A stretch of DNA of 64,000 bases. Origin: a virus. The notes below the pieces were generated by a model that saw only the letters and a program-made list of their open reading frames with translations, was not told the DNA's origin and searched no databases. Position 1 is the stretch's first letter. Every line of letters starts with the position of its first letter. This document shows, one piece after another, positions 30,151 through 64,000 of the stretch. The stretch spans positions 30,413 through 94,412 of IMG/VR virus record IMGVR_UViG_3300008448_000023, one strand, 5' to 3'. Both the position numbers and the translations under genes were made by a program.

Positions 30151-31405
30151 AGTATTCCCGATTAAAAGCGACACGGCCTGTTTGTTGAAGTGGGCCTGGT
30201 CAACAGTATATCTAGGTCAGGGCACAAGCTCAAGTTGTCACCGCACAGATCAGGCACTTATTCCCCCAGACAACTTTGCAAGCTTTCACAACTTGCCCAA
30301 CAAAGTGGCAGCACGAAAGCAAATGCAGGAAGGCACTTGGCCACAAGGCGGATGTCAGTACTGTGAAAAGATTGAGCAAGCAGGCGGCATGAGCGATCGA
30401 CAATACCAACTCAAGGCTGGTCACGAAGCTGATCGCACTCCTGAAGAGTTGTTGACAGACCCCACTGCCACAGAAGTTGTGCCCACTATCTTGGAAGTCT
30501 ACTTCAACAACACCTGCAACATGGCCTGCTTGTATTGCGGTAGTCACTTCAGTACCAAATGGGAAGAAGAAAACAAGAGATTTGGCGTATTTGAACAAGG
30601 GCGTGTACGGTTTGGATACAATCAACCCTCCAATCCCAACTATGACAAAATGTTGGCAGACTTCTGGCAGTATCTCAGAGACAAAGATCGCTACAAGCAC
30701 ATACGCTACTATCAGATCCTAGGCGGAGAACCATTCTTTCAGCCAGAGTTTGACACCAGCTTAGACTTCTGGGAAAGTCATCCCAACCCGGAACTCACAT
30801 TCAACATCATTACCAACTTGAAAGTGCCCACAAAGAAGTTCAAAGCATACATAGATCGCTTTGGGGCAATGGTTGAGTCTGGTGCATTAAAACGTCTACA
30901 AATAACTGGCAGCTTGGATGCCTGGGGTCCACAAGAAGAATATGTGCGCTGGGGACTTGACCTTGAGGAGTGGCAAGAGAACTGGGAATACTTGCTGGAC
31001 AAAGACTGGGTTGTGATGTGCATGAACACAGCTATCAGTGCGCTGACAATTAAAACACTGCCTGACTTAGTGGAACGTATCAATGGTTGGAATGCTCGCC
31101 GCAATCCCTGGAATCCCATCAGCTTCAGCTTTATGTCAGTAATGACACCGCCTGAAATGGTTCCGGATATCTTTGGTGCTGGAGTGTTTGATGCAGACTT
31201 TGAACGTGTGTTGGCAGCCATGCCTACAGACAAACCTGGATCCCAAGAAGCACGAGAACACATGACTGGCATTATGCGACAGATACAAGCAGGCCCCAGA
31301 GATCAAAGCCGCATTGATGATCTCAAAGTTTATCTAACTGAGATTGATCGCCGCCGCGGAACCAATTGGAAACAGTTATTTCCGTGGCTTGCAGAGCTCA
31401 ACTAA
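30140..31405 (+). CDS. Radical SAM enzyme, N-terminal twitch (#6)
   Basis: Start revised to ATG 30140 (MSNRVF); CNMACLYC and LGGEP; CLLKW...SCHR...GCQYC. Confidence 0.85.
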   Translation: MSNRVFPIKSDTACLLKWAWSTVYLGQGTSSSCHRTDQALIPPDNFASFHNLPNKVAARKQMQEGTWPQGGCQYCEKIEQAGGMSDRQYQLKAGHEADRTPEELLTDPTATEVVPTILEVYFNNTCNMACLYCGSHFSTKWEEENKRFGVFEQGRVRFGYNQPSNPNYDKMLADFWQYLRDKDRYKHIRYYQILGGEPFFQPEFDTSLDFWESHPNPELTFNIITNLKVPTKKFKAYIDRFGAMVESGALKRLQITGSLDAWGPQEEYVRWGLDLEEWQENWEYLLDKDWVVMCMNTAISALTIKTLPDLVERINGWNARRNPWNPISFSFMSVMTPPEMVPDIFGAGVFDADFERVLAAMPTDKPGSQEAREHMTGIMRQIQAGPRDQSRIDDLKVYLTEIDRRRGTNWKQLFPWLAELN

Positions 31406-58314: not shown

Positions 58315-58406
58315 TGGCGGAAAGCAGAGGAGTCGAACCCCATCCCTGTTAAGAGAACCTGGTTTTCAAGGCCAGTCGCAGGACCATCCCCGCTGCATTA
58401 CTTTCC
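58315..58406 (-). tRNA. tRNA-Ser(TGA)
   Basis: CTGGC-CTTGAAA-ACCAG, long variable arm, GCCA. Confidence 0.85.
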
Positions 58407-60658: not shown

Positions 60659-60740
60659 ATATAGAAACACACTATCCTGGACTGACTACTTGGGCACGGG
60701 CTTTGCTAAAAAGCGATACCGTCCGTAATGTGTTTTTATA

Positions 60741-60954: not shown

Positions 60955-60975
60955 CTAACGTTTGCCTCGTTTCAT
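60955..60975 (-). CDS. Six-codon minigene MKRGKR*
   Basis: AGAGGT RBS, ATG AAA CGA GGC AAA CGT TAG, downstream of a perfect promoter. Confidence 0.5.
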   Translation of the reverse strand: MKRGKR

Positions 60976-61003
60976 GTCATTACCTCTTTGTGTTAAAAAT
61001 GTT

Positions 61004-61032
61004 ATTATACAACAATCGCAGTTTGTTGTCAA
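61004..61032 (-). promoter_or_regulatory. Perfect-consensus sigma70 promoter inside the tRNA array
   Basis: TTGACA-17-TATAAT. Confidence 0.85.
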
Positions 61033-61037
61033 CTGTT

Positions 61038-61115
61038 TGGTGCGTCCCGAGGAATTCGAATCCCCAACCTCACGGCTTCGTAGGCCGGTGTTCTATCCAG
61101 TTGAACTAGAGACGC
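61038..61115 (-). tRNA. tRNA-Arg(ACG)
   Basis: CGGC-CTACGAA-GCCG. Confidence 0.88.
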
Positions 61116-61121
61116 ATTGAG

Positions 61122-61192
61122 TGGCCCCGGTGGGAGGAATCGAACCTCCATTGGTTGTATACGGACCGTGTTCCCATTACACTACAACCGGG
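61122..61192 (-). tRNA. tRNA-like gene with a shrunken anticodon arm (anticodon undetermined)
   Basis: Good acceptor, D and T arms and GCCA end; anticodon arm is only GGT-CCGTATACA-ACC. Confidence 0.6.
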
Positions 61193-61199
61193 ATTGAAT

Positions 61200-61275
61200 T
61201 GGTGCCACGAGCTGGACTCGAACCAGCCACACACAGATTTTCAGTCTGCTGCTCTACCTGATGAGCTACCGCGGC
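61200..61275 (-). tRNA. tRNA-Phe(GAA)
   Basis: GCAGA-CTGAAAA-TCTGT. Confidence 0.92.
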
Positions 61276-61283
61276 GTTGAAAT

Positions 61284-61360
61284 TGGTCTCCGTAGCAGGG
61301 TTCGAACCTGCGACCCCAAGTCCCCCAGACTTGTGCGCTACCGGGCTGCGCTATACGAAG
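61284..61360 (-). tRNA. tRNA-Pro(GGG)
   Basis: CAAGT-CTGGGGG-ACTTG. Confidence 0.92.
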
Positions 61361-61410
61361 ATAAAAAGTCCAGTGACCTAGCTCGTCAAGGGAGAGTATA
61401 GACTTGCGAG

Positions 61411-61486
61411 TGGTGCTCTCAACGTGATTCGAACACGTGACCTTACCCTTACCAAGGGTACGCTCTACCACTAGAGCTATGAGAGC
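61411..61486 (-). tRNA. tRNA-Thr(GGT)
   Basis: TACCC-TTGGTAA-GGGTA. Confidence 0.92.
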
Positions 61487-61489
61487 GAT

Positions 61490-61563
61490 TGGAGCGGGAT
61501 AGGAGAATCGAACTCCTAACTAAACCTTGGCAAGGTTTCGTTTGACCATTAAACTAATCCCGC
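61490..61563 (-). tRNA. tRNA-Gly(GCC)
   Basis: AAACC-TTGCCAA-GGTTT. Confidence 0.92.
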
Positions 61564-61568
61564 ATTTT

Positions 61569-61643
61569 TGGCTCCCCAGGGTGGGATCGAACCACCGACC
61601 AAGAGATTAACAGTCTCCTGCGCTACCGCTACGCTACTAGGGA
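61569..61643 (-). tRNA. tRNA-Asn(GTT)
   Basis: GGAGA-CTGTTAA-TCTCT. Confidence 0.92.
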
Positions 61644-61650
61644 ATATGTT

Positions 61651-61724
61651 TGGTGCCCCATGACAGAATCGAACTGCCGTAACCTGATTACAAAACAGGT
61701 GTAATACCATTATACTAATAGGGC
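61651..61724 (-). tRNA. tRNA-Thr(TGT)
   Basis: CCTG-TTTTGTAAT-CAGG. Confidence 0.88.
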
Positions 61725-61731
61725 TAAACTC

Positions 61732-61821
61732 TGGCGGTGCGACTGAGACTCGAACTCAGAACCCGGCTTTCACCGAGCGACGGATTAGCAATCCGCTCTA
61801 ATACCATTATAGGACCGCACC
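61732..61821 (-). tRNA. tRNA-Ser(GCT)
   Basis: GCGGA-TTGCTAA-TCCGT, long variable arm. Confidence 0.9.
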
Positions 61822-61866
61822 ACGAACTTTTTACTTATAGACGGCTCTGTGACCGCCTACAAAAAT

Positions 61867-61940
61867 TGGTGCTCAGTACAAGAATTGAACTTGTAATAAA
61901 CGCTTATCAAGCGTCCGTTATACCATTTAACTAACCGAGC
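61867..61940 (-). tRNA. tRNA-Ile(GAT)
   Basis: GACGC-TTGATAA-GCGTT. Confidence 0.9.
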
Positions 61941-61948
61941 AACGAAAC

Positions 61949-62022
61949 TGGCACGGGTACTAGGGCTCGAACCTAGAATAACAGAGTCAAAGTCTGTGGT
62001 GTTACCATTACACTATACCCGA
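61949..62022 (-). tRNA. tRNA-Gln(TTG)
   Basis: ACAGA-CTTTGAC-TCTGT. Confidence 0.9.
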
Positions 62023-62031
62023 ACAAAAACT

Positions 62032-62105
62032 TGGCGTACCCACTAGGACTCGAACCTAGACTGACGGTTTTGGAGACCGCGATGCTGCCATTACACTATG
62101 GATAC
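62032..62105 (-). tRNA. tRNA-Trp(CCA)
   Basis: GCGGT-CTCCAAA-ACCGT. Confidence 0.9.
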
Positions 62106-62110
62106 CTATT

Positions 62111-62185
62111 TGGTGGACCGACGGGGGATCGAACCCCGACTAAAGGCTTGCAAAGCCCCTGTGCTCCCATTATCACTATCAGCCC
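62111..62185 (-). tRNA. tRNA-Ala(TGC)
   Basis: GGGC-TTTGCAA-GCCT; G3:U70 present. Confidence 0.9.
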
Positions 62186-62422
62186 AAATTTCTAAACACA
62201 CTGTTGCCAATGTGTGTATTAAAGCATACTGCTGAGTCAGGCGACCGTGCAGCCGAACGTGATCGGTCCTCTCCGCGGATGCTCAATTAAGAGAGCAGTA
62301 TGCTTTAATACGCTGTAATTTTTCACACTAGAAAAAGTGCTTCATCCTACAGGCCGCCCGTTTACACTATATTTTGAGTGCGGTGTTATTCCCTTGGGAA
62401 TGGTCCACGTTACCAACGCACT

Positions 62423-62456
62423 AAAAGAAAAACCCCGGGGTTTTTAGTCCCGGGGT
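62423..62456 (-). terminator. Attenuator terminator upstream of the tRNA array
   Basis: ACCCCGGG-loop-CCCGGGGT followed by TTTTCTTTT. Confidence 0.85.
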
Positions 62457-62475
62457 CCTTTTGAATTTGTGCGAG

Positions 62476-62616
62476 TTAGACTTTTAGAATCTTCTCGCCT
62501 TCAAAGGACCCAGGTGACCCTGGAATACTATTCGCAGATGTAAAACCGCGTGACCAGGCTTGTGTCTGGTTGCACATTGTGGGTTTCAACTGTGAATGAA
62601 TGATTGTTTGCATCAT
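62476..62616 (-). CDS. 46-aa leader peptide missing from the ORF track
   Basis: MMQTIIHSQLKPTMCNQTQAWSRGFTSANSIPGSPGSFEGEKILKV*; starts 7 nt after the -10 box; stop lies inside the antiterminator hairpin. Confidence 0.65.
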   Translation of the reverse strand: MMQTIIHSQLKPTMCNQTQAWSRGFTSANSIPGSPGSFEGEKILKV

Positions 62617-62623
62617 AAGTCCT

Positions 62624-62652
62624 ATTATACTTTATTTACCTTTCGAGGTCAA
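62624..62652 (-). promoter_or_regulatory. sigma70 promoter of the leader/tRNA operon
   Basis: TTGACC-17-TATAAT; TAAATA lies within the spacer. Confidence 0.8.
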
Positions 62653-62699
62653 CCTCGAATTGTTTTTCAAGTGTTGTATTTATACAACACGCTTCAAAT

Positions 62700-62775
62700 T
62701 GGTTGCAGAGGAGGGAATCGAACCCCCGACCTCAAGGTTATGAGCCTTGCCAGATACCGCTTCTAACACTCTGCG
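62700..62775 (-). tRNA. Initiator-type tRNA-fMet(CAT)
   Basis: C1:A72 mismatch, CAAGG-CTCATAA-CCTTG. Confidence 0.85.
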
Positions 62776-63656: not shown

Positions 63657-63726
63657 AAAAACTATTATGAAACACACTATCTGCGGCATTACAGCCCACG
63701 TCAGCTTAATGTGTTTTACAATAGTG

Positions 63727-64000
63727 CCTAAGGTTGAGAATACACCTTAAGCCAACAACACCTCGAGCATTATTACAAACCTTGCGAGTCTGCTTTCTCT
63801 CGACTTCCACTAGATCCATATTGCTATGTAACCCAGTCTGCTGTCAGCATCGCCGTTTTTAAAGACAGGCAGTAGTCTTGTCGCCATATGCTATTCTACG
63901 CTTTCTATCCCGTTGACCTTGCGAGCCATTCAAGTGCGCTAACACCTTACGAAACTTCCTGCATAAACCAATTTCACCTTGCGAGCTACGTTGGACTTGA
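63727..64000 (-). ncRNA. 3' part of a GOLLD-like large ncRNA, truncated by the window
   Basis: No ORF; three CTCGCAAGG hairpins (63780, 63917, 63977); 3' hairpin AAGGTGTATTCTCAACCTT; adjacent to a tRNA array, the usual GOLLD context. Confidence 0.6.

Follow-up and report, generated by a model that had tools for sequence, protein, structure and literature searches.

Large phages often carry arrays of tRNA genes, and the reasons for this are debated, with codon usage, the decay of host tRNAs and escape from tRNA-cleaving defences all having been put forward. Whether such tRNAs are made throughout infection or only under particular conditions is a question raised by a short stretch of sequence near the end of the DNA analysed here, a 64,000-nucleotide (nt) window comprising positions 30,413 to 94,412 of the IMG/VR virus record IMGVR_UViG_3300008448_000023, that is, the final 64 kb of a 94-kb record with a CheckV completeness of 27%. 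Read along the minus strand, to which all features below belong unless otherwise stated, the end of the window carries the 3' part of a GOLLD RNA, an open reading frame (ORF) of 188 amino acids (aa), a tRNA-Met gene, a compact leader unit (62423-62652), a 236-nt spacer free of ORFs and then 25 tRNA genes. The leader unit contains a promoter, a short ORF and an intrinsic terminator. Why should a phage place a terminator between a good promoter and its tRNA genes? On comparative sequence evidence, we think it rather probable that the unit is a ribosome-coupled transcription attenuator, which heads a stable-RNA operon of the phage and gates the synthesis of a spacer RNA and 12-13 tRNA genes. To judge from a model of the ribosome footprint, the phage would then probably make the tRNAs of the first downstream block mainly when ribosomes lag. 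From the features that follow we infer that the terminator is regulated, in which direction it is switched and by what signal.

Architecture and setting of the leader unit

In the window, the unit opens with a sigma70-like promoter, TTGACC-17-TATAAT (62624-62652; -35 hexamer at 62652-62647, -10 hexamer at 62629-62624), which matches the consensus at 11 of 12 positions. Its 7-nt discriminator, AGGACTT (62623-62617), puts +1 on the A of an ATG. This ATG (62616-62614) is the first of an ATGATG and begins 7 nt past the -10 hexamer, so that its A can be the first nucleotide of a leaderless mRNA. The frame runs for 46 codons (MMQTIIHSQLKPTMCNQTQAWSRGFTSANSIPGSPGSFEGEKILKV; 62476-62616) to a TAA at 62478-62476, which is enclosed in a long hairpin, and an intrinsic terminator follows. 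The first-pass annotation of this DNA had proposed the promoter, the start codon at +1, the 46-codon frame, the hairpin around the stop codon and the terminator, and each of these lies where it had been placed.

The phage belongs to a type found as giant phages of lakes, and the unit is common to about 18 relatives. A protein search returned two relatives of the leader peptide (P0001 and P0002), and a metagenome scan with the peptide alignment yielded 20 loci. A search of viral contigs with a degenerate DNA pattern gave one true match, the 251-kb relative G001, in which a DNA search finds the unit at 81% identity; a further candidate carrier, L016, was discarded as a chance match of the degenerate pattern in G+C-rich DNA. 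Removal of duplicates left 19 distinct homologous units, which lie on metagenomic phage contigs and have nucleotide identities of 55-100% (median 68%). Cultured phages appear to be without the unit, as blastn and tblastn searches of them gave only tRNA-Met matches or noise, and the best match of the 46-aa product among 50,697 phage records (tblastn) had an E value of at least 6.

Comparison of the 19 units establishes a common architecture, in that promoter, ORF (38-46 codons), stop-codon hairpin and terminator follow one another in all of them. TTGAC-17-TAYAAT is present in every unit, and ATGATG stands exactly 7 nt after the -10 hexamer in 18 of them. The exception (G001/L037) has a 37-nt insertion after the -10 hexamer, which creates a 5' untranslated region (UTR) of 37 nt with a canonical Shine-Dalgarno (SD) sequence, AAGGA, 7 nt before the ATG. 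The AGGA of the discriminator was also considered as an SD sequence for the second ATG and was ruled out: AGGACTT or AGATACT is found as a discriminator 3' of other promoters in these phages, which makes AGGA a promoter element, and the leaderless reading stands. The surroundings of the promoter hold some features of their own. An inverted repeat, TTCGAGG-TTGA-CCTCGAA, lies around the -35 hexamer (62642-62659); by inspection, its sequence shifts among relatives and its complementarity is kept, and on the plus strand it reads as a hairpin followed by a T run. Just upstream of this repeat (62671-62690), a hairpin, GTGTTGTA-TAAA-TACAACAC, contains TATAAATA, the T4 late-promoter motif, and most relatives keep ATAAATA.

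The comparison also establishes synteny on the downstream side. Upstream neighbours of the unit differ among loci, and relatives of the 188-aa ORF that precedes it in the window are not followed by the unit. Downstream, genes for tRNA-Ala(UGC), tRNA-Trp and tRNA-Gln lie 290-560 nt from the conserved core of the leader in every locus that extends far enough. In the window these three genes begin the first tRNA block (block 1, 61038-62185), presumably the cargo under regulation, which has the next consensus promoter (61032) as its boundary. Its members are tRNA-Ala(UGC), Trp, Gln, Ile, Ser(GCU), Thr(UGU), Asn, Gly(GCC), Thr(GGU), Pro(GGG) and Phe, a degenerate tRNA-like gene, and tRNA-Arg(ACG). 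Between the terminator and tRNA-Ala, no sigma70-like site matching at 9 or more of 12 positions is found in 14 of 18 loci, nor in the window, and the other four loci have weak sigma70-like spacer sites abutting the tRNA. Consensus promoters do stand directly before other tRNA blocks of these phages. For want of a sigma70-like site in the spacer, the closest promoter that can be recognised ahead of the spacer RNA and block 1 is that of the leader.

Several signatures in the alignment make the leader ORF look translated. All 21 related loci keep the frame open, at 38-46 codons and with its stop codon inside a hairpin, and every indel within it is a multiple of three nucleotides in the 19-sequence alignment. 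Conservation is concentrated in a peptide core, AWSRGF-T-S-A-NSIPG in the window (codons 20-33; 62518-62559) and AWSRGF-[AT]-[STP]-[AV]-NSIPG across the homologues, which is the stretch we propose to be sensing. Over this core, column entropies summed by codon position are 4.35, 2.65 and 10.57 for the first, second and third positions, respectively, and both core Gly codons use all four third bases (third-position entropies of 1.87 and 1.93). It is thus the amino acids of the core that are kept.

Alternative pairing of the terminator arm and the position of the ribosome

The terminator (62423-62456) is a G+C-rich stem of 8 bp in the minimum free energy (MFE) structure, in which ACCCCGGG (62456-62449), a 9-nt loop (ACUAAAAAC) and CCCGGGGT (CCCGGGGU; 62439-62432) are followed by a U tract to 62423. 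Together with an A-rich run upstream, it is terminator-like on the plus strand as well; on the minus strand an automatic scan had missed it because the loop exceeds 8 nt. Across the homologues the stem is 99.3% paired, four of its eight pairs show compensatory changes, and the U tract is conserved. The 192-nt transcript from promoter to terminator folds more stably than all of 200 shuffled versions (z = -4.8).

What would make this terminator conditional is a second partner for its 5' arm. The long hairpin around the stop codon has an outer pairing, again in the MFE structure, of GGGTCCTTTGAA (62511-62500) with TTCAAAAGGACCC (62465-62453), and its arms, GGGUCCUUUGAA/UUCAAAAGGACCC, together with two inner helices contain the leader stop codon. 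The 5' strand of this putative antiterminator is CCU-GGG-UCC, codons 35-37 of the leader (62506-62514, with GGGUCC at 62511-62506). Its body (62453-62505) is built from UUUGAA/UUCAAA, GCGAG/CUCGC and AGAUU/AGUCU, encloses the stop codon and ends in GGACCC (62458-62453), which reaches into the terminator. The inner hairpin has a different sequence each time, and in every homologue it holds the stop codon.

The antiterminator strand differs from the core in how it varies. GGG-UCC stands exactly two codons after IPG in every sequence, and the third position of its GGG never varies, unlike those of the core Gly codons upstream. In two lineages this Gly codon has become AGG (Arg), with the pairing of GG to CC retained. 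By these patterns of substitution, NNN-GGG-UCC is constrained at the level of the RNA. Its partner can be identified from the alignment: columns 106-114 pair with columns 168-176 in 86.5% of cases, and in at most 62.8% when the partner is slid by one column, and two of the pairs show compensatory changes. Column 174, in the 5' arm of the terminator, covaries both with its terminator partner (column 190) and with its antiterminator partner (column 108), so that the triplet 108:174:190 reads G:C:G in eight sequences and A:U:A in five. On a tree from which the switch columns had been left out, A:U:A has two or more independent origins, and so has U:A at 114:168. Some relatives have a longer pairing, in which two variable codons extend it across the whole arm, with 10 perfect pairs in L020, for example. 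Conservation of the alternative pairing and of the placement of ORF and stop codon, on which the first-pass annotation had let its proposal depend, is therefore present in the 19 units, covariation included. In all of these units GGGUCC/GGACCC competes for the terminator base. The more specific statement of the annotation, that the hairpin sequesters the 5' arm of the terminator, holds only in part for the window, where 4 contiguous nt are involved.

Energies of forced structures place the antiterminator state between 6.4 kcal/mol below and 6.1 kcal/mol above the terminator state (-6.4 to +6.1), with a median near 0. We then modelled the ribosome as a footprint, with the A-site codon starting 13 nt upstream of the first free base and with only the RNA 3' of the ribosome free to fold, at equilibrium. 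In this model the base of the terminator stem forms with a median probability of 0.05-0.30 as long as the A site has not moved beyond the Ser codon of NSIPG; the value rises to 0.78 at the Ile codon and stays at 0.97 or more from Pro through to the stop codon. The ribosome's leading edge thus arrives at the antiterminator strand just as its A site comes to the end of the conserved core. The model further predicts read-through when nothing is translated.

The following sequence of events would account for these features. Host RNA polymerase would start at the A of ATGATG and produce a leaderless mRNA for the 46-codon leader. As CCU-GGG-UCC emerges, it would pair with GGACCC(C)GG and hold the bottom of the terminator 5' arm in the hairpin that encloses the stop codon. 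A ribosome that keeps pace with the polymerase would cover CCU-GGG-UCC once its A site passes the Pro and Gly codons of NSIPG, and would then sit on the stop codon within the hairpin; ACCC would thereby be freed, the 8-bp terminator completed and transcription stopped at the U tract. With no ribosome, or with one that lags at any codon up to the Ser and Ile codons of the core, the antiterminator would persist and transcription would read through into the spacer RNA and the tRNAs. The operon would in this way be on when translation is slow or failing. This is the direction that the first-pass annotation had suggested, with termination when a ribosome reaches the end of the leader and read-through when it lags earlier, and the footprint model agrees with it, with the reservation that 5 of 18 homologues are terminator-dominant throughout.

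That reservation is one of several observations that weigh against this account. At equilibrium, the model favours the terminator at every ribosome position in the five homologues concerned (L025, L029, L033, L035 and L037). Columns 108 and 174 are mismatched in four or five of the 19 sequences, the window among them, and in the window the overlap of hairpin and terminator is limited to ACCC (4 nt) and two pairs beyond a mismatch; the MFE structure of the full leader in the window forms both helices side by side. When the upstream 75 nt are dinucleotide-shuffled, the 5' arm, which is rich in C, is paired over 5.0 of its 8 nt, against 6.4 of 8 in the real sequences (means of 19 sequences). For the window alone, 7 of 8 nt of the arm are paired upstream, against a mean of 5.9 in shuffles, and 26 of 60 shuffles equal the real value. 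Since shuffled sequences pair nearly as often, thermodynamics on a single sequence does not single out the antiterminator, and the window by itself proves no switch; what it shows on its own is compatible with chance, and support for the switch comes from comparison of the homologues. It is also conceivable that a phage-specific promoter inside the spacer supplies the tRNA transcripts.

Two further hairpins lie near the switch. The CCAGG/CCUGG hairpin (62523-62510) that the first-pass annotation had described as overlapping the 5' end of the antiterminator exists in the window, but otherwise only in L037 and L020, and for this lack of conservation it is neither an element of the trp 1:2 type nor part of a conserved mechanism. 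A second hairpin (62519-62558), found in the RNAalifold consensus, spans the core by pairing CCUGG (62558-62554) of the Ala-Trp codons with CCAGG (62523-62519) of the Pro-Gly codons. It is paired in 97.9% of alignment cells, shows no covariation because its columns are invariant, and does not overlap the antiterminator strand; it may serve as a pause hairpin for RNA polymerase. A trp-type 1:2 element competing with the antiterminator was accordingly rejected, the first hairpin being unconserved and the second lying clear of the antiterminator strand.

What the leader may sense, and competing explanations

If the position of the ribosome sets the fate of the transcript, the codons ahead of the switch determine what is being sampled, and here the composition of the leader is suggestive. 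The run from N16 to F38 (62571-62503), 23 residues long, uses only the 11 amino acids served by block 1, and all 11 of them occur in it. With the amino-acid frequencies of the long ORFs of the window, a run of this length has a probability of P = 4.9e-5, or about 1e-3 after correction for the 24 possible prefixes of the tRNA array, and among these 24 prefixes the probability is minimal exactly at the natural block boundary. Pooled over the homologues, the tRNAs within 1.6 kb downstream are those for A, W, Q, I, S, N, T, P, F, G, R and, in some cases, K, and tRNAs found upstream are those for M, C, K, Y, D, H, E, V and L, and Ile(UAU). At the level of codons, block-1 anticodons read 13 of the 16 codons of N16-I31 (P = 0.004). 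That the core is spelled from block-1 amino acids suggests that it reports on those decoding steps in particular.

A wider proposal builds on this match, namely that the leader is a codon-matched test translation, which samples the decoding steps of the block-1 tRNAs, detects when the corresponding host tRNAs are depleted or cleaved (through anticodon nucleases, starvation or host shut-off) and responds with phage replacements and a structured RNA, and that it is an instance of a general and unpublished kind of control of tRNA arrays in large phages. We advance this only tentatively, as a possibility a good deal less secure than attenuation itself. As the core is common to all homologues, the composition match counts as a single evolutionary observation. 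Other points count against the attenuator itself. The codon-level match is modest, for N16-I31 and over the whole run alike; in the latter, 15 of 23 codons are read by block-1 anticodons (P = 0.045), and UCN Ser codons, CCA, GGG and GCC fall outside that reading. Codons for His, Leu, Lys, Met and Cys occur in the variable N-terminal part and would equally lead to read-through, and one codon per amino acid would make a weak sensor beside the his and phe leaders. The third-position choice did not follow the downstream anticodons from homologue to homologue, as far as the Gly codon columns 73-75 show by inspection (GGC occurs with Gly(UCC) in L029, for example).

Could the unit instead be an ordinary small gene? 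A micro-protein acting in trans could be expressed from its own promoter and end at a leaky terminator, the tRNAs being transcribed by constitutive read-through or from an unrecognised promoter, and the complementarity being incidental or serving to stabilise the 3' end. A strongly conserved peptide could indeed mean a functional micro-protein: conservation of the core at the amino-acid level with synonymous variation is what a functional protein would be expected to show, the JGI gene caller labels the ORF a hypothetical protein, the shuffle control is not significant and, as noted, 5 of 18 homologues are terminator-dominant. The distribution of constraint points the other way. Only 14-17 residues of core are constrained; in the N-terminal and post-core parts codon periodicity is absent, and both length and sequence differ between homologues. 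Ser, Gly, Pro, Thr, Asn and Gln are abundant in the peptide, which lacks a hydrophobic segment, and no Pfam-A or PHROG family matches it at E <= 1. A short conserved core within an otherwise free peptide, directly 5' of an RNA switch, looks like a regulatory leader and is less typical of a micro-protein. A small gene would, moreover, leave unexplained the RNA-level constraint on GGG-UCC, the three-way covariation, the two-codon spacing, the position ahead of tRNA-Ala, Trp and Gln and the match to the amino-acid set of block 1. We therefore regard this explanation as unlikely, although it is the strongest of the alternatives.

An arrest peptide is a less probable explanation still. AWSRGFxxxNSIPG would in that case act in the exit tunnel, as do SecM, TnaC and the erm leaders, and a small molecule, or the condition of a translation factor, would make the ribosome stall at Pro-Gly, where it would cover GGGUCC and so set the terminator state, the match to the tRNAs being coincidental. 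The conserved core is of about the length of the exit tunnel, ends in Pro-Gly and is followed by variable sequence; the distance from IPG to the switch is fixed, at two codons; and the footprint model puts the switch exactly at the Pro and Gly codons. In the same model, however, a stall at Pro-Gly and unhindered translation both give termination, so that stalling would add little unless release were blocked, and the spelling of the core from exactly the block-1 amino acids is left without explanation. A small, non-coding RNA gene that spans some 190 nt from promoter to terminator and has a functionless frame, like the small stable RNAs of the T4 and T5 tRNA clusters, is very doubtful: the transcript is highly structured (as its z score indicates), its neighbours are structured RNAs, with GOLLD upstream and the spacer RNA downstream, and the third positions of GCC-UGG and CCA-GG are invariant and can pair, but the frame is open in all 21 loci with indels of multiples of three only and variation dominated by third positions, the ATG at +1 is conserved or, in L037, replaced by an SD sequence and ATG, and no Rfam family matches.

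Known attenuators, the presumed cargo and neighbouring RNAs

Leader-peptide transcription attenuators are familiar from the amino-acid operons of enterobacteria, in trpL, hisL, pheL and leuL and in the multivalent thrL and ilvL. The phage unit shares with trp/his-type attenuators a promoter, a short leader ORF, a terminator whose 5' arm has an alternative partner upstream, a stop codon within the antiterminator and, it may be, a leader spelled from amino acids relevant to what lies downstream, as well as the predicted outcome, with read-through upon lag and termination when the ribosome keeps pace. It differs in its cargo, which would be tRNA genes and a structured RNA rather than biosynthetic enzymes; in its leaderless mRNA; in a leader that has about 11 amino acids, each one to four times, rather than runs of one codon; and in a short overlap of antiterminator and terminator, of 4-10 nt. 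Since it has no conserved 1:2 element, its predicted default when untranslated is read-through, and not super-attenuation as in the trp/his type. The trp/his-type geometry claimed by the first-pass annotation thus holds as regards the ORF, the terminator and the conserved alternative pairing, but not as regards a 1:2 element.

Other systems share single aspects of the unit. TnaC, SecM and the ermC and cat leaders are likewise short and carry a conserved amino-acid core immediately before an RNA switch. They control Rho access or downstream translation; the unit described here is a candidate switch of an intrinsic terminator ahead of tRNAs. T-boxes of Gram-positive bacteria, which regulate genes for synthetases and amino acids, recognise uncharged tRNA by direct binding and need no translation. 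They resemble the proposed device as a terminator/antiterminator switch that reads tRNA status, and differ in that the phage leader has no match to the T-box or any other Rfam family. For ribosome-mediated attenuation itself, a kinetic theory is available (PMC1183508).

Closest in terms of cargo is the trn operon of Anabaena sp. PCC 7120. This long tRNA array stays silent unless translation is under stress (PMC8421152), and its control is exerted by the ribbon-helix-helix (RHH) repressor TrcR (PMC10272220). Both would be accessory tRNA arrays expressed when translation is impaired. The Anabaena array differs in being under the control of a DNA-binding repressor and in residing on a cellular megaplasmid rather than in a phage, and the terms attenuation, leader peptide and terminator are absent from the 2021 report of its stress response (PMC8421152). 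A full-text literature search found no published attenuator for tRNA genes, the Anabaena array being the nearest case. A rationale for extra phage tRNAs when host tRNAs are damaged is offered by phage T5, in which tRNAs of the phage defeat retron and anticodon-nuclease systems (PMC11555353); that account includes no regulatory leader. If our interpretation of the leader unit is correct, expression of phage tRNAs would be conditional on the state of translation, with the sensor named, and a textbook bacterial mechanism so far tied to amino-acid operons would extend to stable-RNA genes and to a leaderless mRNA, in a compact part of about 230 nt that could be tested in vitro.

The spacer between terminator and tRNA-Ala (62186-62421) holds a new structured RNA, and covariation supports its structure. 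It folds into six helices with 40 consensus pairs, 19 of which show compensatory changes among 16 sequences, and the window sequence has a folding z score of -4.4. One hairpin loop, GCGAUAA, is conserved in the relatives, and one long stem takes variable inserts. A search against Rfam 15 gave no match at E <= 1 in 62186-62660, nor at E <= 0.1 in six homologous loci, the only matches nearby being tRNAs and GOLLD. The spacer RNA would share the read-through transcript with the tRNAs. In L018 (2165-2346) and L022 (2179-2376), a basic ORF of about 55-70 codons with its own SD sequence stands about 10 nt after the terminator and before the spacer RNA, so that the cargo of read-through would not be confined to RNA genes. 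The last helix of the spacer RNA, directly before tRNA-Ala, is a hairpin, ACACAUU...AGUGUGU (62194-62215), in which half of the relatives have exchanged an A-U for a G-C pair. It recurs at 60660-60740 and 63661-63725, that is, before tRNA blocks and after GOLLD, and may be a processing signal.

Upstream of the unit, the GOLLD RNA (63731-64000) is represented by its 3' part, which matches Rfam RF02032 with 103.7 bits over model positions 180-416 and is cut by the end of the contig. In L019, L028 and L037 complete GOLLD copies (156-213 bits) precede the leader unit, which identifies the whole family as GOLLD-carrying lake phages. The tRNA-Met(CAU) gene just upstream of the leader (62700-62775) has a C1xA72 mismatch and two G-C pairs beside the anticodon loop, by which it looks like an initiator tRNA, and a tRNA-Met occupies the same upstream position in at least seven homologous loci.

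Within and beyond block 1, a few further genes deserve mention. Just past the block (60955-61032), a minigene, MKRGKR-stop, with an SD sequence stands behind a perfect TTGACA-17-TATAAT promoter; the minigene is enclosed in an AUGACA/UGUCAU hairpin and precedes genes for tRNA-Lys, Lys, His, Met and Arg(UCG). A second attenuator ahead of this Lys block, with the promoter at 61032, was considered and found unsupported, as no terminator follows the minigene and the near-identical L017 reads MKRGKL. The tRNA region of L031 has a weak tmRNA-like match (2019-2119; 24.5 bits, under the gathering score of 47). ARAGORN missed two genes in the window: the tRNA-like gene of block 1 (61125-61191), a 33.7-bit tRNA match whose anticodon arm is shortened and aberrant, and an 88-nt gene after tRNA-Cys (58319-58406), which scores 36 bits as tRNA-Sec and in whose place the relative L001 has tRNA-Ser(UGA).

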